Source: Burkholderiales bacterium (lineage in GTDB: Bacteria > Pseudomonadota > Gammaproteobacteria > Burkholderiales > SG8-39). Taken from it: a stretch of DNA of 58,165 nucleotides. The position numbers and the translations under genes are program-made. Location of the stretch: contig DASUFW010000185.1 of NCBI GenBank assembly GCA_036274335.1, forward strand, positions 1 through 58,165, read 5' to 3'. This document shows, piece by piece, positions 4,605 through 52,776 of the stretch (position 1 is the stretch's first letter; every line of letters starts with the position of its first letter). The notes beneath the pieces were generated by a model. That model did no database searches and was not told the DNA's origin. It was given only the letters and a program-made list of their open reading frames with translations.

Positions 4605-8391
<3,787 letters not shown>

Positions 8392-33123: not shown

Positions 33124-33142
33124 AGGTACCCCTCGTGCGACC

Positions 33143-33170
33143 GAACTATTTCGCCTCCGGCCTGTCTCTG
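33143..33170 (+). promoter_or_regulatory. Candidate sigma-E/AlgU-type autoregulated promoter of rpoE
   Basis: GAACTA-N16-TCTC, compared with the consensus GAACTT-N16/17-TCTGA. It ends ~75 bp upstream of the rpoE ATG. Confidence 0.5.
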
Positions 33171-33243
33171 CCTCAGAGGCATTGCAACCGGCGGCCGGGT
33201 GGGTATCCTCTCCCGGCTGGAGAGACGGCGGACGGCGGCGTGG

Positions 33244-33843
33244 ATGTCTGAGCGCGATGTCGACCGCCAGTTGGTGGAGCGGGCACAACGTGGCGACAAG
33301 CGAGCGTTCGGGTTGCTGGTGGAAAAGTACCAGCGCAAGCTCGGGCGCCTGCTGGCGCGCTTCATTCGCGACCCGGCGGAAGTGGAGGACGTGACGCAAG
33401 AGGCATTCATCAAGGCGTACCGCGCGCTGCCCGGCTTCCGGGGGGACAGCGCGTTCTACACGTGGCTTTACCGCATCGGCATCAACACGGCCAAGAACTA
33501 CCTGATGGCGCTGGGGCGGCGGGCGCCGACGTCGACCGAGGTGGAGGCCGAAGAGGCGGAAGGGTTCGAAGACGGCGAGCAGCTTCGCGACATCAACACG
33601 CCGGAGAATGTGCTGATGTCTGCAGAGATTGCCCGAACGGTGAACGCGACGATCGAGGAACTGCCCGAGGAGCTTCGCACGGCGATCCAGCTGCGCGAGA
33701 TCGAGGGCATGAGCTATGAAGACATTGCGCGGGTCATGGAATGTCCGATCGGCACGGTACGCTCGCGGATCTTCCGCGCCCGCGAGGCGATCGCCGAGCG
33801 GTTGCGGCCGCTTCTGGATACTCGCAAGGATCAACGGTGGTGA
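33244..33843 (+). CDS. rpoE: ECF RNA polymerase sigma factor RpoE/AlgU
   Basis: MSERDVDRQLVERAQRGDKRAFGLLVEKYQRK..., region 2 and 4 motifs (FYTWLYRIGINTAKN; SYEDIARVMECPIGTVRSRIFRAR). Confidence 0.93.
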   Translation: MSERDVDRQLVERAQRGDKRAFGLLVEKYQRKLGRLLARFIRDPAEVEDVTQEAFIKAYRALPGFRGDSAFYTWLYRIGINTAKNYLMALGRRAPTSTEVEAEEAEGFEDGEQLRDINTPENVLMSAEIARTVNATIEELPEELRTAIQLREIEGMSYEDIARVMECPIGTVRSRIFRAREAIAERLRPLLDTRKDQRW

Positions 33844-33848
33844 CTGAC

Positions 33849-34385
33849 ATGAAGTCCGAGATCTCCGCATTCATGGATGGCGAGCTGGCGGGCGCCGAGC
33901 TCGAGACCGTGCTGGGGGCGCTTCGCGAGGACGGCGAAGCCCTGTCGGCATGGCGTACCTATCACCTGATTGGCGACGCGCTGCATGGCCCGGCCGCACC
34001 CGGAGGGCGCTGCGTTGCGCGCGTCCTGGCGAGGCTGGCGCAGGAGCCCGCGCTGATCGGGACCTTGCCGGCGGACATCGTCCCCGCGCAGCGCCCGCGC
34101 TGGTTCGTGCCCTCGGCGATCGCCGCGAGCCTGTCGGCGGTCGCGCTGGTCGGCTGGATGGTGTTTGCGCCCAGGCCGACGGGCACCGAGGTCGCACGGG
34201 TGGTCGAGCCCGTGGTGATCGATACCGCCAAACCCGCGCCCAAGCCTGCGCTCGTGCGCCATCCCCTCAGCCCGTCGGCGCGCGACTACCTGCTGGCGCA
34301 TCAGGTCTACTCTCCCCGGAACTCGCTGCAGGGCGTCGCACCGTACATTCGCTCGGTGTCCGCCGAAGCGGCGGGCACGCCGTGA
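33849..34385 (+). CDS. rseA: Anti-sigma-E factor, RseA/MucA-like
   Basis: MKSEISAFMDGEL...WRTYHLIGDALHG N-terminal RseA domain and a central TM segment. Lies directly after rpoE. Confidence 0.75.
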   Translation: MKSEISAFMDGELAGAELETVLGALREDGEALSAWRTYHLIGDALHGPAAPGGRCVARVLARLAQEPALIGTLPADIVPAQRPRWFVPSAIAASLSAVALVGWMVFAPRPTGTEVARVVEPVVIDTAKPAPKPALVRHPLSPSARDYLLAHQVYSPRNSLQGVAPYIRSVSAEAAGTP

Positions 34386-35356
34386 GGCTTGCCGCCTGCG
34401 CGGTAGCCCTGCTGACTGCAGCGGGGTGGGCGCAGGCACAGGCGCCGGACACGGCGCAGCATTCCGGCGAGGCGCTGGAGTGGCTGCAGCGCATCTACCA
34501 GGCGACCGAGACGCTCTCGTATTCCGGCACCTTCGTCTATCAGCAGGGTAATCGCTCCGAGACCTCGCGCATCACCCGCAGGGCGGGAGCGACGGGGGGG
34601 ATCGAGAAGCTCGAGGTCCTCGACGGGACGCCGCGCGAGATCCTGCGTACCCGCGACGAGGTGCGCTGCTACCTGCCCGAGAGCCGCACCGTCAAGGTGG
34701 ACCGGCGCAGCGATCCCGGTGCCTTCCCCACGCTGCTGCCCGCCCGGGTGAGCACGCTCCAGCAGAATTACGAGATTTCTTTGGGCAAGACCGCGCGCAT
34801 CGCGGGTTTCGAATGCCGCGCTGTTGTGCTGACCCCCAAGGATGATCTTCGCTACGGGTACGCCTTGTGGGCCGATACGCGCACGGCCATGCTGCTGAGG
34901 TCCCAGACGTTCAACCGGGACGGCGAGCTCGTCGAGCAGTTCAGTTTTGCGCAGCTGGACATCGGCAGCGTGCCGTCGCGCCGGCTGCGGCCTCCACCCG
35001 GGACGCGGGACTGGCGAATCGAAAAGGCCGGCGTGGCTCCGGCCGATCTGCAGGGCGCCGGATGGCGGTTCGGCAGCGAGCTTCCCGGGTTTCGCAAGCT
35101 GGCGGAGGTCCGCCGGGTCATGGGAGATGCGCAGCCCGTCGGCCAGGTGGTCTATTCCGACGGAATGGCGGCGGTATCCATCTTCATCGAGCCCCTCTCG
35201 GCCCGTACCGAGCACGCTCGGATCGGGCTTTCCGGAATGGGCGCGGTCAACGTCTACACGCGCAAGGTGGGGACGTTCCTGGTCACGGTGGTCGGCGAAG
35301 CGCCGGCGACCAGCGTGCAGCGCATCGGCAACGCGGTAGAGTACCGCCCACAGTAA
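34382..35356 (+). CDS. rseB: Sigma-E regulatory protein RseB/MucB
   Basis: GTGA overlap with the rseA stop. Signal peptide. WLQRIYQATETLSYSGTFVYQQGN is typical of MucB/RseB. Confidence 0.85.
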   Translation: MRLAACAVALLTAAGWAQAQAPDTAQHSGEALEWLQRIYQATETLSYSGTFVYQQGNRSETSRITRRAGATGGIEKLEVLDGTPREILRTRDEVRCYLPESRTVKVDRRSDPGAFPTLLPARVSTLQQNYEISLGKTARIAGFECRAVVLTPKDDLRYGYALWADTRTAMLLRSQTFNRDGELVEQFSFAQLDIGSVPSRRLRPPPGTRDWRIEKAGVAPADLQGAGWRFGSELPGFRKLAEVRRVMGDAQPVGQVVYSDGMAAVSIFIEPLSARTEHARIGLSGMGAVNVYTRKVGTFLVTVVGEAPATSVQRIGNAVEYRPQ

Positions 35357-35420
35357 CCTTGGTTCCCGCGGGACGCCGAGGCCCGGCCCGGGGGTGAACT
35401 CGCATGCTAAAGGATCGTCC

Positions 35421-36839
35421 ATGCCATTGATCAGAGCCGCCGCGGCGCTCGTGCTCGCCGCGGCTGCCGCATCCGCCCTAGCGCAGGCGCGCGACCTGCC
35501 CGACTTCACGCGACTGGTCGAGGAGCAGGGGGCCGCCGTCGTCAACGTGAGTACCACGCAGTCCCCGCGACGCGCGGGCACGCCGCAGGTTCCCAATGCC
35601 GAGGACGACGAAATGCTGGAGTTCTTCCGGCGCTTCGTCCCCCGGCCCCCCAGCCCCGGCCCGCGGCCGGAGGCCCGCTCGCTGGGCTCGGGGTTCATCA
35701 TCAGCGCGGACGGCTACATCCTCACCAACGCGCACGTGATCGACGCCGCCGACGAGATCGACGTGCGGCTCACCGACAAGCGCGAATTCAAGGCGCGCGT
35801 GATCGGCGCGGACAAGCGCTCCGACGTGGCCCTGATCAAGATCGAGGCGGCGGGCCTGCCCGCCGTCCGGGTCGGCGATCCCGGGCGCCTCAAGGTCGGC
35901 GAATGGGTGGTCGCCATCGGCTCGCCCTTCGGCTTCGAGAATACCGTCACCGCCGGCATCGTCAGTGCCAAGGGCCGCTCCCTGCCGCAGGAGAATTTCG
36001 TTCCCTTCATCCAGACTGACGTCGCCATCAACCCCGGCAACTCGGGCGGGCCGCTGTTCAATATGAGAGGCGAGGTGGTCGGCGTCAATTCCCAGATCTA
36101 CAGCCGTACCGGCGGATTCATGGGTCTTTCGTTTGCGATCCCGATCGACGTGGCGCTCGACGTGCAGCAACAACTGCGCGAGAAAGGCCGCGTCTCGCGG
36201 GGCCGCATCGGCGTGGTGATCCAGGAAGTGACGCGTGACCTGGCCCAGTCCTTCGGCCTGGACCGGCCGCGTGGCGCGCTCGTCAATTCGGTGGAGAAGG
36301 GCAGCCCCGCCGACAAGGGCGGCGTCGAGGCCACCGACATCATCACGAAGTTCGACGGCAAGGAGGTGGAATCCTCGGCCGATCTCCCGCGGATCGTGGG
36401 CGGGACGCGCCCCGGATCGCGGGTGACCTTGGAGGTCTGGCGACGGGGCGCCAATCGCGCGCTGACGTTGACGGTGGGGGAACTCCTCGAGGACCGCGTC
36501 GCGACGCGCGAGCCCGCCCGGGAGCGCAAGCCCGGTGCGTCCGTGGCCAACCGCCTCGGCATCGTGGTGAGCGAGCTGAGCGCCGACCAGAAGCGCGAGC
36601 TGGGCGTCGAGAGCGGGCTGCTGGTGACCGAGGTCAAGCCGGACGCGCGCGCGGAACTGCGCCGCGGCGACGTGCTGCTCAAGCTCGTCCATAGCGGCAA
36701 GCACACGGAACTGAAGAGCGCCGACCAGCTCAACAAGCTGCTCGCGGGCCTGGACAGGAATGCCGTCATCACCCTGCAGGTGCGTCGGGGCGAGAGCACG
36801 GCATTCGTGACGGTGACCGGCCTTGCCGACAAGGGCTAG
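35421..36839 (+). CDS. degP: Periplasmic serine endoprotease DegP/MucD (trypsin domain + 2 PDZ)
   Basis: ATG with AAGGA SD, giving signal peptide MPLIRAAAALVLAAAAASALA. Catalytic triad H (TNAHV), D (DVALIK) and S (GNSGGPL). The ORF track opens at GTG 35394. Confidence 0.9.
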   Translation: MPLIRAAAALVLAAAAASALAQARDLPDFTRLVEEQGAAVVNVSTTQSPRRAGTPQVPNAEDDEMLEFFRRFVPRPPSPGPRPEARSLGSGFIISADGYILTNAHVIDAADEIDVRLTDKREFKARVIGADKRSDVALIKIEAAGLPAVRVGDPGRLKVGEWVVAIGSPFGFENTVTAGIVSAKGRSLPQENFVPFIQTDVAINPGNSGGPLFNMRGEVVGVNSQIYSRTGGFMGLSFAIPIDVALDVQQQLREKGRVSRGRIGVVIQEVTRDLAQSFGLDRPRGALVNSVEKGSPADKGGVEATDIITKFDGKEVESSADLPRIVGGTRPGSRVTLEVWRRGANRALTLTVGELLEDRVATREPARERKPGASVANRLGIVVSELSADQKRELGVESGLLVTEVKPDARAELRRGDVLLKLVHSGKHTELKSADQLNKLLAGLDRNAVITLQVRRGESTAFVTVTGLADKG

Positions 36840-37068
36840 CGCGCCCATCGTGCTGTACGGCCGCTCCGGCTGCCACCTGTGCGAGGTGCTGGCGGACGAG
36901 CTCGCTCGCCTGGGCGTGCCCTTCGTGGACGTGGACGTAGACAGCGACGCGGCGCTGCGTGCGCGCTACGGCGCGCGAGTGCCGGTGCTGGCGGCGGCGG
37001 ACGGCCGGGAACTCGCGGCGGGACGCATCGAGCCGGCGGGCCTGCGCGCACGCCTTGGGCTAGAATAG
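36823..37068 (+). CDS. Glutaredoxin-like protein (DUF836 type)
   Basis: 81 aa. LYGRSGCHLCE (CxxC), then VPVL. The start could instead be the GTG at 36850. Confidence 0.7.
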   Translation: MPTRASAPIVLYGRSGCHLCEVLADELARLGVPFVDVDVDSDAALRARYGARVPVLAAADGRELAAGRIEPAGLRARLGLE

Positions 37069-37088
37069 CGGCCGCTGCTGAATGGGAA

Positions 37089-37112
37089 GGGTGCCGCTGG
37101 CACCCTTTTTTT
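37089..37112 (+). terminator. Canonical intrinsic-terminator-like hairpin with T7 tract abutting the lepA start codon
   Basis: GGGTGCC-gct-GGCACCC (7-bp perfect stem, 3-nt loop) followed by TTTTTTT. The lepA ATG begins 2 nt later. Confidence 0.65.
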
Positions 37113-37113
37113 C

Positions 37114-38916
<1,803 letters not shown>

Positions 38917-38919
38917 GCC

Positions 38920-39708
38920 GTGAGCTTCGCGCTGTTCCTGCTCCTCCTGCTCGTGGTGACCGGCGCGGTCTGGGCGCTGGAGGCGGCATGGCTGCGCCGG
39001 CGCCGACCGGACGGGCGCAAGCAGCCGTGGTGGGTCGAGTACTCGGTGAGCTTCTTCCCCGTCATCCTGATCGTGTTCCTGCTGCGCTCCTTTCTCGTGG
39101 AGCCCTTCAAGATCCCTTCGGGCTCCATGGTGCCAACCCTGCTGGTCGGCGACTTCATCCTGGTCAACAAGTTCGCCTACGGAATCCGGCTGCCGGTGGC
39201 CAATGTCAAGGTGCTCGAGGTAGGCAGCCCACAGCGCGGCGACGTGATGGTGTTCCGGTTTCCCGAGGATCCTTCGCTCGACTACATCAAGCGCGTCGTG
39301 GGACTCCCCGGCGACCGGATCGTCTATCGCGACAAGCGGCTGACCATCAACGGGCAACCGGTGCCGCAGCGCCAGATCGACGACTATCTGGCACGCGAGC
39401 GCGTGCAGATGTACCGTCGGTACGTCGAGACGCTGGGCAAGGTCGAGCACCAGATCCTCGTCGACCCCGATGCCCCCCCGTACGTGCCCCAGGTCCACGC
39501 TTTTCCGCATGTGGGAAATTGCAACTACAATAAGAGCGGGCTGGAATGCACGGTCCCGGCGGGGCACTATTTCATGATGGGCGACAATCGCGACAATTCG
39601 AGCGACAGCCGGGTGTGGGGCTTCGTGCCGGACGAGAACATCGTCGGCAAGGCGTTCTTCGTCTGGCTCAATATCGGCGAGCTGAGCCGATTCGGGCCGT
39701 TTCACTGA
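38920..39708 (+). CDS. lepB: Signal peptidase I
   Basis: 262 aa. IPSGSMVPTL (catalytic Ser), YIKRVVGLPGD (Lys), GDNRDNSSDSR. Confidence 0.93.
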   Translation: MSFALFLLLLLVVTGAVWALEAAWLRRRRPDGRKQPWWVEYSVSFFPVILIVFLLRSFLVEPFKIPSGSMVPTLLVGDFILVNKFAYGIRLPVANVKVLEVGSPQRGDVMVFRFPEDPSLDYIKRVVGLPGDRIVYRDKRLTINGQPVPQRQIDDYLARERVQMYRRYVETLGKVEHQILVDPDAPPYVPQVHAFPHVGNCNYNKSGLECTVPAGHYFMMGDNRDNSSDSRVWGFVPDENIVGKAFFVWLNIGELSRFGPFH

Positions 39709-39734
39709 ACCGGCTTCCTCAGAGGAGATCGACC

Positions 39735-40082
39735 ATGCGCGCGCGGCAAACAGGCGTCACGCTGTTGGGCTTGATCATAGGTTCGTTCGTGCTCGTGCTG
39801 GTGGCACTGCTCGCGATGCGGCTGCTGCCTTCGTACATCGAGTACTTCTCGATCAAGAAGGCCGTGGTGAGCATCTCCAAGGAACGCGAGGCCACGCCCA
39901 GCGATCTGCGCCGGGCCTTCGAGAACCGCTCGGCGATCGACGATTTCCAGTCGGTCAAAGCGAAGGACCTCGAGATCAGCAAGCAGGGCAACGGGTATCT
40001 GATCACGGCGCAGTACCGCAGGGAGGTCCCGTTGTTCGCGAACATCGGCGTCTACATCGACTTCGACGTGTCGTCGCAGTAG
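39735..40082 (+). CDS. DUF4845-like small membrane-anchored protein
   Basis: 115 aa from MRARQTGVTLLGLIIGSFVLVLVALLAM (prepilin-like N-terminal helix). Conserved position between lepB and rnc in betaproteobacteria, as far as I recall. Confidence 0.55.
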   Translation: MRARQTGVTLLGLIIGSFVLVLVALLAMRLLPSYIEYFSIKKAVVSISKEREATPSDLRRAFENRSAIDDFQSVKAKDLEISKQGNGYLITAQYRREVPLFANIGVYIDFDVSSQ

Positions 40083-40100
40083 GTCGGGGGTCCCGGCGGC

Positions 40101-40772
40101 TTGCCCCGCATCGACGCCCTGGAGCTGCGGCTCGGGTACGCCTTTCGAAGCAAGGCGCTGCTCGAGCAGGCGCTCACGCACCGCAGTTTCGGCGCGCCCC
40201 ACAACGAACGGCTGGAGTTCCTGGGCGATGGCGTGCTCGGCTGCGTGGTCGCGCAGGCCCTGGTCGAGAAGTTCCCGGAGGCGAGCGAGGGCGAGCTGTC
40301 GCGATTGCGCGCCAGCCTGGTCCGGCGCGAGTCGCTCGCGGCGGTGGCCCGGGAAATCGGCTTGCCCGCGCATGTGCGCCTGGGCCGGGGAGAAGGCGCG
40401 AGCGGCGGAACCGGACGTCCATCGATTCTCGCCGACGCCCTGGAGGCCCTGTACGGCGCCGTGCTGCTCGACGGCGGCTACGAGGCGGCGCGGGGAGCGG
40501 TGCTGGCGACGCTCTCGGCTTCTCTCGCGACGGCGGATGAGCGGGCCACGGCGAAGGACGCCAAGACGCGGCTGCAGGAGGCCTTGCAGGCACGCCGCCA
40601 CGGTCTGCCGCGCTACGAGGTCGTCGCCACCCACGGCGCGGCGCACGCCCAGCGGTTCGATGTCGAGTGTACGGTGGCGGGCCTGGACCTCCGGGCGCGC
40701 GGCAGCGGCAGTTCGCGGCGGTCCGCTGAGCAGCAGGCGGCCGAGGCGCTGCTAAGACGGCTGGGGCCGTGA
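40101..40772 (+). CDS. rnc: Ribonuclease III
   Basis: TTG start. ALTHRSF...NERLEFLGD signature and C-terminal dsRBD. Confidence 0.95.
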   Translation: MPRIDALELRLGYAFRSKALLEQALTHRSFGAPHNERLEFLGDGVLGCVVAQALVEKFPEASEGELSRLRASLVRRESLAAVAREIGLPAHVRLGRGEGASGGTGRPSILADALEALYGAVLLDGGYEAARGAVLATLSASLATADERATAKDAKTRLQEALQARRHGLPRYEVVATHGAAHAQRFDVECTVAGLDLRARGSGSSRRSAEQQAAEALLRRLGP

Positions 40773-41653
40773 GCGCCTTTCGCAGTGGCAGCGTCGGTTT
40801 GATCGGCCGGCCGAACACCGGCAAGTCGAGCCTGCTCAACCGCCTGCTCGGGCAGAAGCTGGCGATCGTTTCGCCCCGCGCCCAGACGACTCGCCACCTG
40901 CTGACCGGGGTACTGAACCTGCCGGACGGCCAGATCGCCTTCGTCGATGCGCCCGGATTCCAGACGCGGCATCGCAGCCTGCTCAACCGCTCGCTCAACC
41001 GGCGCGCGGGCGAGGCCGCGCGGGATGCCGACGTCGCGGCCTTCGTGGTCGAGGCGCTGCGCTTCGGCGTCGACGATCGCTCCGCGCTGGCGCGGATTTC
41101 GGCCGACCAGCGGGTCGTGGCCGTCGTCAACATGGTGGACAAGGTGCGGCCTGTGAGCCGGCTGCTGCCGTACCTCGAGCGACTGGCCGCGGAGCGGCCC
41201 TTTGCGGCGGTGGTGCCGGTGTCGGCCGCGACCGGCCGGAACCTGCCGGAGCTGCTCCGCGTGCTCCTCGCGCTGCTCCCCGAAGGCCCGCCGATGTATC
41301 CGGAGGATCAGCTGACCGACCGGGATGAGCGCTTCTTCGCCGCGGAGCTGCTGCGCGAGAAGATCTTCCGCGAGCTCGGCGAGGAGCTTCCGTATCACTG
41401 CGAGGTGATCGTCGAGCGCTTCCGGGAAGAGGGCCGGCTGCGGCGCATCGAGGCGACGCTGTGGGTGGAGCGCGAGGCTCACCGCCCGATCGTGCTGGGT
41501 GCGGGCGGCGCGCGCCTCAAGCGCATCGCGTCGTCCGCGCGGCGCGACATGGAGCGGATGTTCGGCGGAAAAGTGTTTCTGCAGACCTGGATCAAGGTGA
41601 AGTCGCGCTGGTCGGAGGACGAGCGCCTGCTGCGCGAGCTCGGTTACGCGTGA
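40769..41653 (+). CDS. era: GTPase Era
   Basis: GSVGLIGRPNTGKSSLLN, DAPG, C-terminal KH domain. Overlaps the rnc stop. Confidence 0.95.
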   Translation: MSAFRSGSVGLIGRPNTGKSSLLNRLLGQKLAIVSPRAQTTRHLLTGVLNLPDGQIAFVDAPGFQTRHRSLLNRSLNRRAGEAARDADVAAFVVEALRFGVDDRSALARISADQRVVAVVNMVDKVRPVSRLLPYLERLAAERPFAAVVPVSAATGRNLPELLRVLLALLPEGPPMYPEDQLTDRDERFFAAELLREKIFRELGEELPYHCEVIVERFREEGRLRRIEATLWVEREAHRPIVLGAGGARLKRIASSARRDMERMFGGKVFLQTWIKVKSRWSEDERLLRELGYA

Positions 41654-47524: not shown

Positions 47525-47600
47525 GCGGGAGTAGCTCAGTTGGTAGAGCGCAACCTTGCCAAGGTTGAGGTCGCGAGTTCGAGACTCGTCTCCCGCTCCA
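47525..47600 (+). tRNA. tRNA-Gly (GCC)
   Basis: GCGGGAGTAGCTCAGTTGGTAGAGC..., anticodon loop TTGCCAA, T-arm GGTCGCGAGTTCGAGTC-like, encoded CCA. 76 nt. Confidence 0.92.
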
Positions 47601-47650: not shown

Positions 47651-47724
47651 GGGCGGGATGGCAGAGTGGTCATGCAGCGGCCTGCAAAGCCGTCTACGCC
47701 GGTTCGATTCCGACTCCCGCCTCC
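47651..47724 (+). tRNA. tRNA-Cys (GCA)
   Basis: GGCGGGATGGCAGAGTGGT..., anticodon loop CTGCAAA, GGTTCGATTCC T-arm, CCA. 74 nt. Confidence 0.92.
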
Positions 47725-47734
47725 ACCGCACGTC

Positions 47735-47821
47735 CGCCCGGGTGGCGAAACTGGTAGACGCAAGGGACTTAAAATCCCTAGGCCGCAAGGCCGTACAGGT
47801 TCAAGTCCTGTCCCGGGCACC
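47735..47821 (+). tRNA. tRNA-Leu (TAA)
   Basis: GCCCGGGTGGCGAAACTGGTAGACGC, anticodon loop CTTAAAA, long variable arm, GGTTCAAGTCC T-arm, CCA. 87 nt. Confidence 0.92.
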
Positions 47822-47844
47822 AAGCTTCGGGCCGGCGGTTGAGG

Positions 47845-48273
47845 CTAGGCCGGGGCGAGCATCAGGCGTATGCGGTTGCGCCCGAACACGTACGCATAGT
47901 CGCGGGACTTGGCCAGTTCCTTGGTCAACAGGACGCCGAGACCCCCGATCCGGCGCATGCTGACGGTCGTATCGGGCGCCGGGGCGGCCGCCTCAGCCAG
48001 GGCCGAGTACGGATTAAAGGGCGGGGCCTTGTCCTCGTAGATCAGCTGCACCGTGTCGCTGCCCCGCGACACGGTCACCCAAACCGGTGCGTCGCAGTCG
48101 CCCCGATGGCCGTGGCGAACGGTATTGGTGAACAATTCCTCGACAACCAGGTTGAGCCTCAGGCACGCTTCCCTCGGTAACCCGGCGCCGGCGCAGAACT
48201 TTTCCAGGAATGACTGCATGGGCCGAAGCTGGTCCAGGCGTGCAAGAAATTGTTCGGTGCGGAGGGTGTTCAC
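47845..48273 (-). CDS. GHKL-type anti-sigma-factor-like serine kinase (RsbW/SpoIIAB-like, HATPase_c_2)
   Basis: 142 aa, GTG start. N-box EELFTNTVRHG. G2 box IGGLGVLL. The G1 region is YEDKAPPFNP (Gly replaced). Confidence 0.75.
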   Translation of the reverse strand: MNTLRTEQFLARLDQLRPMQSFLEKFCAGAGLPREACLRLNLVVEELFTNTVRHGHRGDCDAPVWVTVSRGSDTVQLIYEDKAPPFNPYSALAEAAAPAPDTTVSMRRIGGLGVLLTKELAKSRDYAYVFGRNRIRLMLAPA

Positions 48274-48296
48274 GGCGGCGTCGGCAGTCCCGGAGC

Positions 48297-48306
48297 ATTA
48301 TAAAAT
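48297..48306. promoter_or_regulatory. AT-only 10-mer ATTATAAAAT with back-to-back -10 hexamers in the 58-bp divergent region
   Basis: The plus strand reads TATAAA/TAAAAT, ~26 nt before the FecR-gene ATG, which has a GGGAGG SD. The minus strand reads a perfect TATAAT, ~24 nt before the kinase GTG. Confidence 0.35.
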
Positions 48307-48331
48307 CCCGTTCAGAGATTGGGAGGGTCCC

Positions 48332-48775
48332 ATGCGGCACCTAGCAGTGGCAGCAGTCCTGGCGTTCGCGGTGGCGGGCTTTGCGCGCGCCGAGGACGTC
48401 GGCCAGATCAAGGTCGCGAAGGGCACCGTCCACGTCGAGCGCGACGGCAAGCAACTGCCGGCCTCGGTGGGAATGCCCATTCGTCAAGCCGACAAGCTGA
48501 TTACCGGCGCCGACGGCTCGGCCGGGGTCACGTTCACCGACAACAGCCTCCTGTCCACCGGTCCGAACAGCGTGCTCGTCGTCGACCACTACACCTTCGA
48601 CACGCGCACGCACGTTGGGCAGTTCGACGCGTCGCTGAAGAAGGGATCGCTGGCGGTCGTCTCGGGCAAGATGGTCAAGCAGACCCCCGGCGCGATGCGC
48701 GTGCGCACGCCGGCGGCGATCATGGGCGTGCGCGGCACGGACTTCGTCGTGCAGGTGGACGACCCCGCCAAGTAG
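48332..48775 (+). CDS. Secreted FecR-domain protein
   Basis: 147 aa. Signal peptide MRHLAVAAVLAFAVAGFARA. FecR-like beta-rich body (GTVHVERDGK...GADGSAGVTFTDNS...MGVRGTDFVV). Confidence 0.72.
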   Translation: MRHLAVAAVLAFAVAGFARAEDVGQIKVAKGTVHVERDGKQLPASVGMPIRQADKLITGADGSAGVTFTDNSLLSTGPNSVLVVDHYTFDTRTHVGQFDASLKKGSLAVVSGKMVKQTPGAMRVRTPAAIMGVRGTDFVVQVDDPAK

Positions 48776-48778
48776 AAC

Positions 48779-49381
48779 ATGGGGGCCGTGATCGTCGCGC
48801 TCGTCGGGGCGCTCATGGTCCTCATCAGCAGCAGCGGGGAACGTCTGGGGAACGAGCGGGTTGTCGTGCTCCGCTCGGCGGACGGGCATGTCGGCATGGT
48901 GGTCGTCGAGCGGGGCGGGAAGCGCGTCGTGCTCAACGAGGCCTACGCCTCCAGCGATATCGTCGACGGCGGTGCGCCAGAGCGCCGGATCCTGACCTCC
49001 GCCGAGGTGCGCTCGGAATTCTCGGCCGCGCTGATGGCCCTGCCGGAGCTGCCGAAGACATTCCTCGTGTACTTCAACGAAGGCACCGACGAGCTCACAC
49101 CCGAGTCGCGCGCCGAATTCGAGAAGATCCTTGCAGAGATTCGCGATCGCAGCGGGCCGGACATCCTGGTCATCGGGCATACCGACCGGCTTGCCTCGGA
49201 CGATTACAACGACCGGCTGTCGCTGCAGCGGGCGCAACGCGTGCGCGACGAACTGATCAAGCTCGGCATTCCGGCCGACCGCATCCGTGCCGCGGGTCGA
49301 GGCGAGCGCGAGCCGCTGGTGGCGACCCCCGACGGCGTTTCGGAGCCCCGCAACCGGCGCGTAGAGATCAACGTCCGCTGA
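48779..49381 (+). CDS. OmpA-family peptidoglycan-binding protein with N-terminal membrane anchor
   Basis: 200 aa. N-terminal hydrophobic helix. C-terminal OmpA_C motif GHTDRLASDDYNDRLSLQRAQRV...NRRVEI. Starts 3 nt after the FecR-gene stop. Confidence 0.8.
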   Translation: MGAVIVALVGALMVLISSSGERLGNERVVVLRSADGHVGMVVVERGGKRVVLNEAYASSDIVDGGAPERRILTSAEVRSEFSAALMALPELPKTFLVYFNEGTDELTPESRAEFEKILAEIRDRSGPDILVIGHTDRLASDDYNDRLSLQRAQRVRDELIKLGIPADRIRAAGRGEREPLVATPDGVSEPRNRRVEINVR

Positions 49382-49397
49382 GTCGCCCGCCGGCGCG

Positions 49398-51386
49398 CTA
49401 GGCGGGACCTCGCCAGCGCAGGCAGAGCAGCGTCAGGTCGTCGGAGGCCTCCGCATCGCCGACGAATTGCCGGACATCCGCGCGCACGGCCGAGAGCATG
49501 GCCTCGGGCGAAGCGTCGGGCGGCACGGACTCCAGCACCCGGCGCAGGCGCCCGGCGCCGTAGAGCTCGCCCGCGGCATTCATCGCCTCGGTGACCCCGT
49601 CCGTCACCACGCAGACCCATTCGCCCGGTACGAGCTGGTGCCGCGCCATCGGGTAGTCGAATCCCTCCACCACGCACAGCGGCGGCCCGCCTTCATGCTC
49701 GAGCCGCGCAATGCGCTGCCCCGGCGCGCCTGCGAAGGGCGGCTCATGGCCGGCGTTGCTGAACTGCAGCTCGCCCGTGCGGGCGTCCAGAATGCCGGCA
49801 AAGGCGGTAATGAACAGGGATTCGGGGTTCTCGCGGGAGACTTCGCTGTTGGCCCGCAGCATGACGCGCGCCAGGTCCTCCCCGCGCCGCGCCGCGCTTT
49901 TCAACAGCGTCTTGGACAGCGCCATGAACAGGCTTGCCGGCAGCCCCTTGCCTGATACGTCCGCGACGATGAAGAACAGCCGGTCGCGGTCGACCATGAA
50001 GCAGTCGTAGAAATCCCCGCCGACCGAGCGGGCGGGCTCGAGCAGCGCGTCGATCGCGAAGCGCGGTTCCCGGGCAAACAGTTCTCCTGGCGCCGGCAGC
50101 AGGCCCATCTGGATGCGGCGCGCCGATTCGAGCTCCCCCGACACACGCGCGGCCTGCTCCCGCAACCGCCGCCGCTGCTCGTCGGCCTCGCTGAGCGCCT
50201 CGGCCAGCACCACGCCGAACACGACGGTCGCGGCGATGGCCGGCCAGGCGACATCGATCAGCAGGCCTTCGACCAGGAAGGCCTCGATGCCGAGTGCGGC
50301 CAGAAGCAGCACCGTGCACGCGTAAAGCACGATGGCCGTGCCCACGCCGAGCGCGGGCACCGCGAAAGCGAAGGCGAGGGCGGTCAGCGCCGTCAGGCCG
50401 AGCTCGAGACCATGCAAAGCGGCCGGCCGGCGCAGGAACGCGTGATCGAAGATCTGCTCCAGGATCTGGGCGTGGATCTCCACGCCGGGGACCCGATCGC
50501 CGAGCGGGGTGCTCTGGTAGTCGAGCAGTCCGATGCCGGTAACGCCGACCAGCACGAGCCGCTGCTCGAGGGTCTCCGGGTTCAGCTCGCCCGAGAGCGC
50601 TTCGGCCGCGGACACGAACCGATCGGGATCGTGCGGTCCGTAGCGGATCCAGAATTGCCCGTCGTTCTGCGCCGGTATCGTGACATCGGCGACGCGCACG
50701 TCGACCTGATCGCGCCCATGGCCCTGGAGAACGATCGGTCCACCAGTGGCGACCCGCAGCATTTCCACGCTGAGCGAGGGCACCACCACCTCGCCGATGC
50801 GCGCCACGGCCAGCGCTCGCCGGATCACGTTGCTCTCCGGATCGACGCTCAGCAGGCCGTGCCCGGCCGCCGCCTGATCGATCTCCGGGAGGCTCTGCAG
50901 GTGCCCGGGAAAATAGCGCAGCGAGAGCGACGGCGCATCCCTGATCAGTACCGGCGGGGCAGGCGGGGGGCGGGGGAAGCGCGGGTCTCGTGATTCGATG
51001 CCGGCAATGCCAAGCACGACCGGGCGTCCACGAAGGGCGTCCGCCAGCATGGCGTCGTTCGAAGGCAGCGCGCGCAGGCGGCGCGCGACCCCGGGCGAGA
51101 GTTCCTCCACTTCCCGCGCCACGGCGGCGGGCGAAAAGCGGTCGGGCTCCGGGAACAGCAGGTCGACGCCGATGGCCGCCGGCCGCGCCGCGGCGATCTG
51201 CTCGAGCAGCCTGGCCAGCCGCGTGCGCGGCCAGGGCCACTGCCCGTAGCGTTCGAGCGCGGCTTCGTCGATGGCCACGATGACCGCCGGCGCGCTGCGC
51301 CGCTCGCGCGGGAAGATCCGCTGGTAGGTATCGAACAGCGCGTGGCGGAGCCCCCGCACGGCGGGCGGCTCCTCCCACAGCAGCAC
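49398..51386 (-). CDS. CHASE2 sensor domain / PP2C (SpoIIE-type) serine phosphatase; the true start is probably upstream at CTG 51443
   Basis: CHASE2-like N-terminal part (VIVAIDEAALERYGQWPWPR...GVDLLFPEPD), 3 TM helices, then PP2C motifs GGDFYD, ADVSGKG, NAGH, VTDGVTEA. Confidence 0.82.
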   Translation of the reverse strand: MLLWEEPPAVRGLRHALFDTYQRIFPRERRSAPAVIVAIDEAALERYGQWPWPRTRLARLLEQIAAARPAAIGVDLLFPEPDRFSPAAVAREVEELSPGVARRLRALPSNDAMLADALRGRPVVLGIAGIESRDPRFPRPPPAPPVLIRDAPSLSLRYFPGHLQSLPEIDQAAAGHGLLSVDPESNVIRRALAVARIGEVVVPSLSVEMLRVATGGPIVLQGHGRDQVDVRVADVTIPAQNDGQFWIRYGPHDPDRFVSAAEALSGELNPETLEQRLVLVGVTGIGLLDYQSTPLGDRVPGVEIHAQILEQIFDHAFLRRPAALHGLELGLTALTALAFAFAVPALGVGTAIVLYACTVLLLAALGIEAFLVEGLLIDVAWPAIAATVVFGVVLAEALSEADEQRRRLREQAARVSGELESARRIQMGLLPAPGELFAREPRFAIDALLEPARSVGGDFYDCFMVDRDRLFFIVADVSGKGLPASLFMALSKTLLKSAARRGEDLARVMLRANSEVSRENPESLFITAFAGILDARTGELQFSNAGHEPPFAGAPGQRIARLEHEGGPPLCVVEGFDYPMARHQLVPGEWVCVVTDGVTEAMNAAGELYGAGRLRRVLESVPPDASPEAMLSAVRADVRQFVGDAEASDDLTLLCLRWRGPA

Positions 51387-51439
51387 CAGCAGCGCGACGA
51401 GCAGCGCGAGCGGTCCGGCCCGCCGGGTCCACTCCGCGC

Positions 51440-52396
51440 TCAGACGTCCACCTCCAGACCGTCATAGGCGGCGGAAATCCGCAGCGGGCGCGTGCCGCGG
51501 GTCAGCTCCTCGAAGCGCCGCGTTTCGCGCAGCACGCCCTCGATGGTGGCGTCGTCGTAGGACGGTTCGTGGTGGAACAGCACCAGGTGCTTCACGCGCG
51601 CCATCTGGCACAGCTCGACACCGATGATGTTGCTGGAATGGCCCCAGTCGGCCTTGACGGAGATCGCGTCCGCGAGCGAGTACATCGCATCGAAGATGAC
51701 GAGGTCGGCGCCGTGGAAGAAGCGCACGAAGCGCTCGGTCTGCGCGCGATTCTCGAGCTTGTGCTCCGAATCCGTCGTATACACGACGGCCTTGCCCGCC
51801 TGCTCGAAGCGGTAGCCGAAGGAATCGCCCGAATGCATCTGCGGTGCCGGCGTCACCGTCACCCCGCCGATCTCGTGGCTGCGGCCGGGCACCAGCCTGA
51901 CGAACTCGATATCGGCGGCAAGTTGGGAGAACTCCACCGGGAAGCAGGGAGGGGCCTGTTGCAGCCGGAAGGCGTGCTCGAGGGTGTCGTGGCATCCGTG
52001 GATGCGGATGCGCGTGCCCGGCGCATAGGCCGGCCCGAAGAACGGGAAGCCCATGATGTGGTCCCAGTGCACATGCGACATGAACACGTTGATGGCGGCC
52101 GGCTTGCCCGACTGGCGGGCCAGGACGTGGGCGCCGAAGGGACGTGCGCCGCTCCCCATGTCGCAGACGAAGTAGTCCTCGCCGCCGGTTTCGATCTCGA
52201 CGCACGGCGAGTGGCCGCCAAAGGTGTGCGTCAGCGAGAAATCCAGGCTCGAGGTGGCGAAGTCGTAGGCTTCGCCGACCGTGGCGAAGCGCCGCCCCTC
52301 GGCGCGAAACAGCGCCTGGGCCACCTTGTCGCGAATGTCCGCGGAGGTCAGCGCGACGGGGATCGAGCCGCGCGTGCCCCAGAACCGGACGCGCAC
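51440..52396 (-). CDS. MBL-fold metallo-hydrolase (PhnP/RNase-Z-like subgroup)
   Basis: 318 aa. MRVRFWGTRGSIP..., metal motif SHVHWDH, later D/H positions (TTDSEH, HSSN, FHHEP). Confidence 0.8.
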   Translation of the reverse strand: MRVRFWGTRGSIPVALTSADIRDKVAQALFRAEGRRFATVGEAYDFATSSLDFSLTHTFGGHSPCVEIETGGEDYFVCDMGSGARPFGAHVLARQSGKPAAINVFMSHVHWDHIMGFPFFGPAYAPGTRIRIHGCHDTLEHAFRLQQAPPCFPVEFSQLAADIEFVRLVPGRSHEIGGVTVTPAPQMHSGDSFGYRFEQAGKAVVYTTDSEHKLENRAQTERFVRFFHGADLVIFDAMYSLADAISVKADWGHSSNIIGVELCQMARVKHLVLFHHEPSYDDATIEGVLRETRRFEELTRGTRPLRISAAYDGLEVDV

Positions 52397-52401
52397 CCCA
52401 G

Positions 52402-52776
52402 CTATCCCCGGTCGAACGCGGCGGCGGCGGCGGGCGAAAGCGCGGCCAGGGCGTCGCGCACCTTCGGGTAGGCGTCGAACACGAGGTTGAACCGCGCGAT
52501 CTGGAAGATCTCGGCCACCACAGGCTGCATGGCCGCGATCACGATGCGGCTGTTCTGCGCCTTGGCCTGCTTGGCCGCCAGCATGAAGCAGCGCAGGCCC
52601 GCGCTCGACACGTATTCCAGGCCGGACAGGTCGAGCACCAGGGACAGCTGCTCCCGGGCGGAGCGCTCGAGGTGCGGCGCCAGCTCTTCGCGGAACGACT
52701 CGCAGTTGTCGTGATCCAGCCGGCCGGTCGGCGCGAGGACCAGCGCGTTTTCGAACAAGCGGTGGGCGAGGGGCAT
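52402..52776 (-). CDS. STAS-domain anti-sigma-factor antagonist (RsbV/SpoIIAA-like)
   Basis: 124 aa from MPLAHRLFEN. LVLDLSGLEYVSSAGLRCF contains the conserved phosphorylatable Ser context. Ends 5 nt before the MBL gene start. Confidence 0.8.
   Translation of the reverse strand: MPLAHRLFENALVLAPTGRLDHDNCESFREELAPHLERSAREQLSLVLDLSGLEYVSSAGLRCFMLAAKQAKAQNSRIVIAAMQPVVAEIFQIARFNLVFDAYPKVRDALAALSPAAAAAFDRG

Follow-up and report, generated by a model that had tools for sequence, protein, structure and literature searches.

Partner switches are usually read as regulators of sigma factors, and few examples are known in which the switch protein acts on an enzyme, such as SiaABCD and HsbA. Six adjoining genes at positions 47845-52776 of a 58,165-nucleotide (nt) stretch of DNA from a Burkholderiales bacterium (lineage SG8-39 in GTDB; GenBank assembly GCA_036274335.1, contig DASUFW010000185.1), hereafter called the window, raise the question of what such a switch may control when no sigma factor is encoded with it. 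They specify a CHASE2-PP2C phosphatase, a STAS protein, a GHKL kinase, a FecR-domain protein, an OmpA_C-type protein and a metallo-β-lactamase (MBL)-fold hydrolase. A previous interpretation of the bare DNA (the sequence-only reading) had taken them for an envelope-sensing phospho-switch whose output is not a sigma factor. All six open reading frames (ORFs) occur in the ORF table at the coordinates and on the strands that it gave, and each of its seven domain calls (CHASE2, SpoIIE, STAS, HATPase_c_2, FecR, OmpA and Lactamase_B_2) is supported by the respective Pfam hidden Markov model (HMM), as listed here with the E-values.

52402..52776, minus strand: STAS-only protein, phospho-switch, 124 amino acids (aa) (STAS 1e-16, STAS_2 5e-17)
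51440..52396, minus strand: predicted MBL-fold metallo-phosphodiesterase, 318 aa, cytoplasmic (Lactamase_B_2 2e-17)
49398..51443, minus strand: CHASE2-PP2C sensor phosphatase, 681 aa (CHASE2 5e-53, SpoIIE 3e-48)
48779..49381, plus strand: predicted OmpA_C-type peptidoglycan-binding protein, 200 aa (OmpA 4e-21)
48332..48775, plus strand: secreted FecR-domain protein, 147 aa (FecR 5e-12)
48274..48331, no strand: divergent intergenic region between the kinase and FecR genes, 58 nt (read from the sequence)
47845..48273, minus strand: RsbW/SpoIIAB-type GHKL serine kinase, 142 aa (HATPase_c_2 3e-19)

We propose, at a probability of roughly 0.55, that these genes constitute a sigma-less partner-switching cassette with the MBL phosphodiesterase as its enzyme output, gated by phosphorylation of the STAS protein. 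The FecR protein, the peptidoglycan-tethered inner-membrane OmpA_C protein and the periplasmic CHASE2 domain would together face the envelope or peptidoglycan as the sensor, and the signal would alter the activity of the cytoplasmic PP2C domain via the transmembrane (TM) bundle and the helical linker. The PP2C would strip the phosphate placed on Ser58 of the STAS protein by the RsbW-like kinase, and the phospho-state of the STAS protein would then decide between docking on the MBL enzyme and docking on the kinase, thereby switching the phosphodiesterase. The earlier notion of an envelope-sensing switch with a non-sigma output is thus supported in our analysis, and none of the tests of domain content, sigma-factor adjacency and co-occurrence refuted it.

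The MBL-fold enzyme as the candidate output

The sequence-only reading had put the MBL hydrolase forward as the candidate output, a suggestion that is now much better founded, as this MBL subfamily is repeatedly fused to STAS. A HMMER search with the MBL protein against 1.84 billion cluster representatives returned 6609 matches at E ≤ 1e-3, 801 of them at E ≤ 1e-30. Many of the best matches are longer than the 318 aa of the query, and Pfam shows fusions: STAS-MBL in P0123, P0124, P0125, the Roseospira protein P0272 and many more; MBL-STAS in P0131 and P0156; MBL-STAS-Pkinase in P0157; and MBL-STAS-Pkinase-AAA_16-TPR in P0138, P0150 and P0176. Scored with HMMs that we built, the top 150 representatives of 50%-identity clusters include at least 45 STAS/MBL fusions; the STAS HMM used is narrow and undercounts them (P0176 was scored as MBL-Pkinase, yet Pfam finds the STAS domain). 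A second search, with the fusion P0124 as the query, returned a large STAS-MBL family that includes a protein of the cultured Roseospira visakhapatnamensis. The Ser equivalent to SpoIIAA Ser58 is invariant in the STAS-MBL fusions.

A third scan, queried with an MBL-STAS-Pkinase protein, reached Chloroflexota, Nitrospinota, Spirochaetota, Ignavibacteria, Myxococcota, Verrucomicrobiota and a few archaeal bins; the Spirochaetota matches include Leptospira interrogans, L. borgpetersenii, L. weilii and L. noguchii. Two protein-pattern scans confirmed at least 580 relatives each. In L. interrogans, the MBL gene and a STAS gene of 103 aa diverge, with a SpoIIE-type PP2C 3 kb off; a Fimbriimonadaceae bin (Armatimonadota) carries a tight kinase-STAS-MBL operon, and Chloroflexota encode a single-chain MBL-STAS-Pkinase protein. 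Throughout these lineages the STAS-MBL pair is constant; the kinase is of either the GHKL or the Hanks type and the phosphatase is either CHASE2-PP2C or a soluble PP2C, as expected of interchangeable inputs. Since STAS and MBL are fused in both domain orders across different phyla, they would, on this Rosetta-stone evidence, act together. The repeated fusion, along with the adjacency of the two genes in Leptospira and Armatimonadota, points to the MBL enzyme as the switch's likely output.

The single-chain forms vary in size. The MBL-STAS-Pkinase form encoded at Chloroflexota loci L168-L172 and L207 measures about 700 aa, and giant proteins of 1200-1650 aa (P0138, P0150, P0164, P0176 and others) are built as MBL-STAS-Hanks kinase-AAA_16-TPR. 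The latter look like the switch in single-chain form, with a STAND-type kinase.

Alternatively, the cassette might be a conventional switch, in which the kinase sequesters a sigma factor or other regulator encoded elsewhere, the MBL enzyme being merely accessory or co-regulated. The kinase is of the RsbW/SpoIIAB type (HATPase_c_2, with weak RsbW matches), and other proteobacterial switches, HsbA/FlgM and BtrUVW amongst them, do have unlinked targets. We nevertheless hold this explanation to be rather improbable: STAS is covalently fused to MBL in both orders and in several phyla, which co-regulation alone would not explain; in the Chloroflexota fusions, a Hanks kinase, devoid of anti-sigma function, replaces the GHKL kinase; and no sigma gene was found within 5-8 kb of the cassette or its relatives in the 247 loci collected, 167 of which were probed and the rest covered by Pfam sampling.

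Various searches bear on this last point. The immediate neighbours of the cassette in six different flank contexts are only housekeeping and metabolic genes by Pfam, with no sigma gene amongst them. Precomputed Pfam annotation lists no sigma factor in L081-L087, and Sigma70 families are absent from the 25 most frequent nearest-neighbour families, upstream and downstream, of 80 distant loci. Phmmer probes of the RpoE and SigB type (the window RpoE and a Bacillus subtilis SigB sequence, respectively) returned nothing in 167 loci, at a limited sensitivity: the SigB probe missed the window RpoE even at E ≤ 10, for which reason we give more weight to the Pfam scans of the neighbours. The absence of a co-encoded sigma factor, claimed by the sequence-only reading for the cassette, thus extends to the relatives, with no cognate sigma factor encoded alongside the module in the flanks of the loci. 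The reading of the cassette as a sigma-less partner switch is supported by this gene content, and in that respect it is not a classical Rsb/SpoII system.

Conservation of the cassette and of its switch and sensor proteins

To what extent the six genes belong together was addressed with two sets of loci. For the first, a scan with the phosphatase over one genome per GTDB species gave 80 loci of 45-75% identity, all from uncultured Burkholderiales/Betaproteobacteria, Usitatibacter and strain GR16-43, which were mapped by tBLASTn with the six window proteins (a gene being counted at ≥80% coverage). The order STAS, MBL, CHASE2-PP2C / opposite-strand OmpA, FecR / kinase is kept in 58 of these 80 Burkholderiales loci, and the 22 loci without all six genes are mostly truncated contigs; where the contig reached far enough, tBLASTn showed no departure from this order and orientation. 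The MBL protein is the most conserved of the six in this set (64-89% identity). Clustering of the flanking ORFs yielded at least six different genomic contexts, with neighbours identified by Pfam as FAA hydrolase, UvrC, PgsA, 3-HAO, AsnB, an AbrB-type membrane protein, PPK2 and amidohydrolase, as well as a cNMP-binding MscS channel, RapZ, M20 peptidase, GroEL, Icd, MutY, CYTH-CHAD and TDO.

For the second set, a profile-based genome scan gave 80 further loci, mapped with HMMs built from the first set; counts were made for the 63 with at least 4.5 kb downstream of the MBL gene. These come from Alpha-, Beta-, Gamma- and "Delta"-proteobacteria, Binatota, Methylomirabilota/Rokubacteria and Eisenbacteria. 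CHASE2-PP2C follows MBL in 54 of the 63 loci; the kinase is present in 49, FecR in 47 and OmpA in 45, and all five downstream domains are found together in 41. In 18 of the 63, STAS is fused to MBL. Individual arrangements differ: Rhizobiales bacterium NRL2 has STAS, MBL and CHASE2-PP2C, and a metagenomic contig has a STAS-MBL fusion, CHASE2-PP2C and kinase, followed by OmpA and FecR on the other strand. Conserved co-occurrence, as one would expect of the gene set described by the sequence-only reading, was hence seen across classes and phyla. Its statement that FecR genes frequently adjoin CHASE2 genes agrees both with the 47 loci and with the BiofilmReg operon (PMC5192318).

Since order and orientation are kept while the flanks change, the six genes evidently travel as one conserved unit rather than being chance neighbours. 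That they adjoin by accident or by local synteny, without a functional link, has next to no probability in our estimate. The sole point in favour is the flanking synteny shared by the closest relatives (context A). Against this stand the gene order and orientation kept over at least six flank contexts and several phyla, the gene fusions, and stops and starts that overlap by 4 nt or lie 3-5 nt apart. As far as comparative genomics can refute it, chance adjacency is already refuted.

A minimal form, consisting of a STAS-MBL fusion and a kinase, occurs at six loci (L105, L114, L115, L141, L147 and L149). These, together with L182, are variants with no nearby PP2C, and MBL enzymes do hydrolyse phosphoesters; the MBL protein could accordingly be imagined as part of the switch chemistry itself, as a second phospho-STAS hydrolase or a processor of a kinase-linked nucleotide. 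We know of no MBL-fold phosphoserine protein phosphatase, a dedicated PP2C is already present directly after MBL in 54 of the 63 loci, and the nearest MBL structures are nucleotide and nucleic-acid phosphodiesterases, which together leave this explanation very unlikely.

We found no description of a CHASE2-PP2C/STAS/MBL system or of STAS-MBL fusions in the full-text literature searched; existing names for such proteins are only "MBL fold metallo-hydrolase", "phosphoribosyl 1,2-cyclic phosphodiesterase" and "anti-anti-sigma factor". Amongst the PADLOC defence models, five of the cassette proteins have no match, and the OmpA_C protein shows only generic OmpA_C/MotB similarity to ZorB (1.7e-9).

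The switch proteins are well preserved. The PP2C motifs GGDFYD, DVSGKG, NAGH and TDG, the Ser context of the STAS protein (DLSGLEYVSSAGL) and the N and G2 boxes of the kinase, which the sequence-only reading had called intact, are all found in the translations, and the catalytic positions are 96-100% conserved (118-160 orthologues per protein). In the phosphatase, Asp477, 495, 615, 668 and 669 are invariant amongst 155 orthologues; the best NCBIfam match of its PP2C part is SiaA, though far under the cutoff. The STAS protein passes the NCBIfam model TIGR00377 (anti-sigma factor antagonist) with 64.6 bits (cutoff: 53.45), and neither S58 nor G60 varies amongst 153 orthologues. Ser58, the second S of VSSAGL, is predicted to accept the phosphate, and we take it to correspond to Ser58 of SpoIIAA. 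The kinase has N50, D81 and G113 100% conserved in 118 orthologues and a degenerate G1 box (DKAPPF in place of DxGxxF); its NCBIfam RsbW matches are weak and far under the cutoff. Judged by this conservation, the PP2C, the STAS protein with its phospho-acceptor Ser and the GHKL kinase are all three intact and under purifying selection.

On the sensor side, the translation of the phosphatase reads, in order, as an N-terminal TM helix, a periplasmic CHASE2 domain, a hydrophobic stretch, a helical linker and a PP2C domain of the SpoIIE type; we read the hydrophobic stretch as three TM helices. The FecR-domain protein has a signal peptide ending in ...FARA|ED. The OmpA_C-type protein has an N-terminal membrane anchor without a lipobox Cys, and its segment HTDRLASDDYNDRLSLQRAQRV (HTD...YN..LS..RA..V) presumably fits the OmpA_C peptidoglycan-binding consensus.

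Amongst known systems, RsbU-RsbV-RsbW and SpoIIE-SpoIIAA-SpoIIAB share the same three protein families with the cassette, including a PP2C with the metal Asp residues, a single-domain STAS protein with its Ser and a GHKL kinase, the catalytic and phospho-acceptor residues being intact. They differ in that no sigma factor accompanies the module in the loci examined, that the MBL enzyme stands in the place of the output, and that the kinase gene stands apart from the STAS operon.

The closest working analogue is SiaABCD of Pseudomonas aeruginosa, composed of the PP2C SiaA, the kinase SiaB, the switch protein SiaC and the diguanylate cyclase SiaD. Common to both is a small switch protein whose phosphorylation is set (here by prediction) by a membrane-anchored sensor PP2C together with a small kinase, with no sigma factor involved (PMC7647112, PMC8457831). 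In SiaABCD, the switch protein acts directly on the enzyme (PMC8457831, PMC7647112), SiaC binding and controlling a nucleotide second-messenger enzyme, and we propose that the cassette, known here from its genes, may work alike. Unlike SiaABCD, its enzyme is an MBL-fold hydrolase and no GGDEF domain is found; its switch protein is a canonical PF01740 STAS protein with a Ser acceptor, its sensor is CHASE2 with FecR and OmpA_C partners, and switch and enzyme are often fused. By analogy, the cassette would be a partner switch with an enzyme output that resembles the SiaABCD family; lacking a GGDEF domain and having a switch protein of another family, it is no member of it.

The input resembles the BiofilmReg operon of Burkholderia, consisting of a response regulator, a LysM-FecR periplasmic protein and a CHASE2 histidine kinase (PMC5192318). 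Both place a CHASE2 membrane sensor beside a secreted FecR protein linked to a peptidoglycan-binding module (PMC5192318), and in the cassette CHASE2 lies between TM segments with the secreted FecR protein and the peptidoglycan-binding module adjoining. Unlike in BiofilmReg, that module is not a fused LysM domain but an OmpA_C protein of its own, and the transmitter is a PP2C feeding a STAS protein rather than a histidine kinase with a response regulator.

Nature of the MBL-fold enzyme

The MBL protein has no signal peptide and carries the ligand motifs H108-x-H110-x-D112-H113, H188, D209, H253 and H275/H276, 100% conserved in 160 orthologues. It has the MBL fold, the HxHxDH site and the downstream His/Asp ligands of the atypical class II phosphodiesterases, amongst them YhfI of B. 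subtilis, Mycobacterium tuberculosis Rv1339, Corynebacterium glutamicum CpdA and phage Apyc1, with which it also shares PF12706. This family holds the atypical class II cyclic AMP (cAMP) phosphodiesterases Rv1339, CpdA and YhfI (PMC9293780); the preferred substrates of YhfI are cAMP/cGMP, and Apyc1 belongs to the class II MBL phosphodiesterases (PMC9117128). Unlike these, the window protein is only 16-21% identical to them (profile E of about 1e-7), is some 70 residues longer and has a helical insertion after the first strand. PF23023 (Anti-Pycsar_Apyc1) was not found in the window MBL or in P0016 even at E ≤ 10; it is listed weakly for many homologues, which we regard as a weak hint only.

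An AlphaFold2 (AF2) model of the MBL protein (pLDDT 87.5, pTM 0.88) has a family-specific insertion of three helices after the first strand, at about residues 17-55. The top Foldseek matches in the PDB are 1zkp (a B. anthracis ElaC homologue), YhfI (6kns), RNase Z (1y44) and PhnP (3g1p), followed by arylsulfatase, PNGM-1, PqqB and yeast PDE1, with query TM-scores of 0.55-0.66; for YhfI and 1zkp, E = 1.5e-13. Sequence and profile searches return the same structures at E of about 1e-7 to 1e-5. From these comparisons, we predict a di-metal phosphodiesterase of a distinct clade, in between the YhfI-type cyclic-nucleotide (cNMP) phosphodiesterases and RNase Z.

For the substrate, our leading guess, made tentatively, is a cyclic mononucleotide (cAMP or cGMP), and RNA or another phosphodiester is the main alternative. 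In the latter case, the wiring of the switch would be the same, with the MBL protein as a regulated ribonuclease or other phosphodiesterase (of the RNase Z/ElaC or PhnP type) and RNA processing or decay, or a metabolite, as the output. RNase Z/BN is the best single-sequence PDB match (2cbn, 5e-6), with PhnP also matched, and TIGR02651 (RNase_Z) is the best NCBIfam match (2.2e-16); TM-scores on the query are highest for RNase Z structures (0.63-0.66), the GHSS motif falls opposite the GHSS(T) loop of RNase BN in the alignment, and the JGI naming of the family follows PhnP. Conversely, the RNase Z and PhnP scores are far under the family cutoffs (for RNase Z, 59.8 vs. 292.95), the HEAT stretch of RNase BN aligns to FDAMY in the MBL protein, no counterpart of the RNase Z flexible arm was noticed in the secondary structure of the model (by eye, without superposition), and the recurring neighbours are nucleotide-signalling rather than RNA-metabolism genes. 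On balance, we consider this alternative unlikely, albeit less so than the unlinked sigma factor discussed above.

The genomic context hints at a nucleotide second messenger as the substrate. In Rhodospirillales variants (L081/L089, 4690-6846; L088, cyclase domain at about 4950-5717; L096, 8437-10335), a second CHASE2 protein has a class III nucleotide cyclase as its output domain; it is encoded within the STAS-MBL/CHASE2-PP2C operon, in two different positions, and FecR/OmpA are absent. In Roseospira, for instance, the CHASE2-cyclase is followed by the STAS-MBL fusion and then by CHASE2-PP2C. A gene for a cNMP-binding MscS-type channel comes right after the kinase gene in 11 Usitatibacter-like loci (L054, L057, L064, L066, L070, L074, L077, L080 and others), a cyclase directly follows MBL on a Leptospiraceae contig, and PilZ and HD/HDOD genes adjoin distant MBL relatives. 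We considered cyclase enrichment as strong evidence and rejected it: with an iterated cyclase profile, in-operon cyclases were found only in Rhodospirillales and elsewhere lie 4-7 kb away, on the other strand.

A number of observations speak against the MBL enzyme being a cyclic-nucleotide phosphodiesterase that is the dedicated output of the switch. It is only remotely related to characterised enzymes (best profile E to a solved structure, about 1e-7) and scores far below the NCBIfam cutoffs for cNMP phosphodiesterase (curated model NF041851, 53.9 bits against a cutoff of 400), RNase Z (TIGR02651) and PhnP. Outside one lineage, cyclase genes occur at about chance density near the cassette; some cassettes have no FecR/OmpA genes, and two STAS-MBL fusions are on their own, without a kinase or phosphatase in the vicinity. 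The neighbours of distant MBL relatives from Spirochaetota, Ignavibacteria, Myxococcota and other groups are heterogeneous (amongst 80 distant loci, HD/HDOD in 7, FGGY kinase in 8 and STAS in 4), and the STAS link would therefore mark a large sub-clade and not the entire MBL family. When a natural STAS-MBL fusion was modelled with AF2, each of the two domains came out confidently, the 25-residue linker between them (113-137) was disordered, and the pTM was only 0.76; such a long linker would also fit a tethered domain that docks and undocks. Finally, an unlinked sigma partner could lie in the genome outside the visible 58 kb.

A broader version of our proposal, which we offer with more reserve than that for the cassette, is that STAS-MBL might be an ancient multi-phylum unit in which STAS phosphorylation gates an unrecognised clade of MBL cyclic-nucleotide phosphodiesterases, driven by FecR/OmpA_C/CHASE2 in Proteobacteria, Binatota and Methylomirabilota. 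If true, this would mean a new output class for partner switches and the first tractable read-out of CHASE2 signalling. Taken together, the cassette and the recurrent fusion predict a defined input (CHASE2, FecR and a peptidoglycan anchor) and a new enzyme output (an MBL phosphodiesterase). As of 2016, the CHASE2 ligand was still not known (PMC5192318), and that question would become open to experiment with a simple read-out, be it phospho-STAS or enzymatic. Should the MBL enzyme degrade cAMP/cGMP, it would open a new route from the state of the envelope to second-messenger levels, in lineages that are abundant in soil and with relatives in pathogenic Leptospira.

Gene layout and genomic setting

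The spacing of the genes in the window fits three transcription units, as the sequence-only reading had it. The STAS gene ends 5 nt before the MBL start, and the phosphatase start overlaps the MBL stop by 4 nt. On the opposite strand, the OmpA-like ATG comes only 3 nt after the FecR stop, which suggests that these two genes are translationally coupled. The OmpA-like and phosphatase genes are convergent, with their stops 16 nt apart; in the gap (49382-49400), there is an inverted repeat rich in G+C (CCCGCC ... GGCGGG), which lacks a T-run and overlaps the stop of the phosphatase gene. The kinase gene lies on the same strand as the STAS-MBL-PP2C operon and is split from it by the opposite-strand FecR-OmpA pair. 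This placement of the pair between two same-strand units (STAS-MBL-PP2C operon and kinase gene) recurs in every lineage, and it could entail antisense or read-through effects.

For the phosphatase start, 51443 and 51386 had been left side by side. The codon at 51443 is CTG and overlaps the MBL stop (cTGA), and the only canonical in-frame start, the GTG at 51386, falls within the first TM helix. The 19 codons upstream of that GTG are conserved as protein (K/R-R-A-G-P-L-A-L...) in homologues, and amongst close homologues with the same overlap (L001-L015 and L072), 12 loci have CTG and two (L002 and L015) GTG at this position. Because of the conserved upstream residues and the CTG/GTG codons of the homologues, 51443 is probably the better start. 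The arrangement suggests CTG initiation, or termination-reinitiation coupling, at the phosphatase start.

The 58-nt region between the divergent kinase and FecR genes contains the AT-rich CATTATAAAAT amid about 68% G+C, which gives TATAAA when read on the plus strand and a perfect TATAAT when read on the minus strand. A scan of this region for consensus promoters gave no match, and any promoter role of CATTATAAAAT is inferred only from its letters. A ribosome-binding site, GGGAGG, precedes the FecR ATG.

The sequence-only reading had placed the cassette directly 3' of a tRNA cluster. This holds for the window, where ARAGORN finds tRNA-Gly (47525-47600), tRNA-Cys (47652-47725) and tRNA-Leu(taa) (47736-47822) on the plus strand, the last ending 22 nt before the kinase stop at 47845; it is lineage-specific and not a property of the system. 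Indeed, the Gly-Cys-Leu cluster flanks the cassette only in the clade of the window, and of 16 more distant loci scanned, 14 are without a tRNA and two have an unrelated tRNA about 2-3 kb beyond the kinase gene. Judged by these comparisons, the tRNA adjacency is incidental. In other Burkholderiales clades (L001-L080), a tRNA-Phe gene lies just before STAS or just after the kinase gene. The adjacency had also led us to consider an island or mobile element, which we rejected: the G+C content is uniform (0.65-0.71) and there is no integrase amongst the annotated flanking genes.

The rpoE gene of the window (33124-33840, extracytoplasmic function (ECF)-type by eye) is about 14 kb from the cassette. 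The distance given by the sequence-only reading stands; the RseA-type neighbour is as read from the adjoining ORF (33720-34382) and not from an HMM. The interval 33124-41650 is an ordinary one, whose further ORFs can be read as degP-like, lepA, lepB, rnc and era.

A search of plasmids returned only MBL relatives of about 30-35% identity without STAS, on rhizobial chromids and a Leptospira plasmid. In 240 rhizobial plasmids and chromids, shorter MBL relatives are found beside a DUF3095 protein, a cyclase and an MscS channel (for instance, at 3548-5813 of L248, a Sinorhizobium medicae chromid), and at 5001-6414 of L249, a Leptospira interrogans plasmid, a shorter MBL relative is next to a PilZ-domain protein. 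Moreover, in Roseospira (L081, 1-2393), a gene a few kb upstream of the cassette encodes a protein exceeding 1000 aa that combines WD40 repeats with a caspase-like Peptidase_C14 domain.

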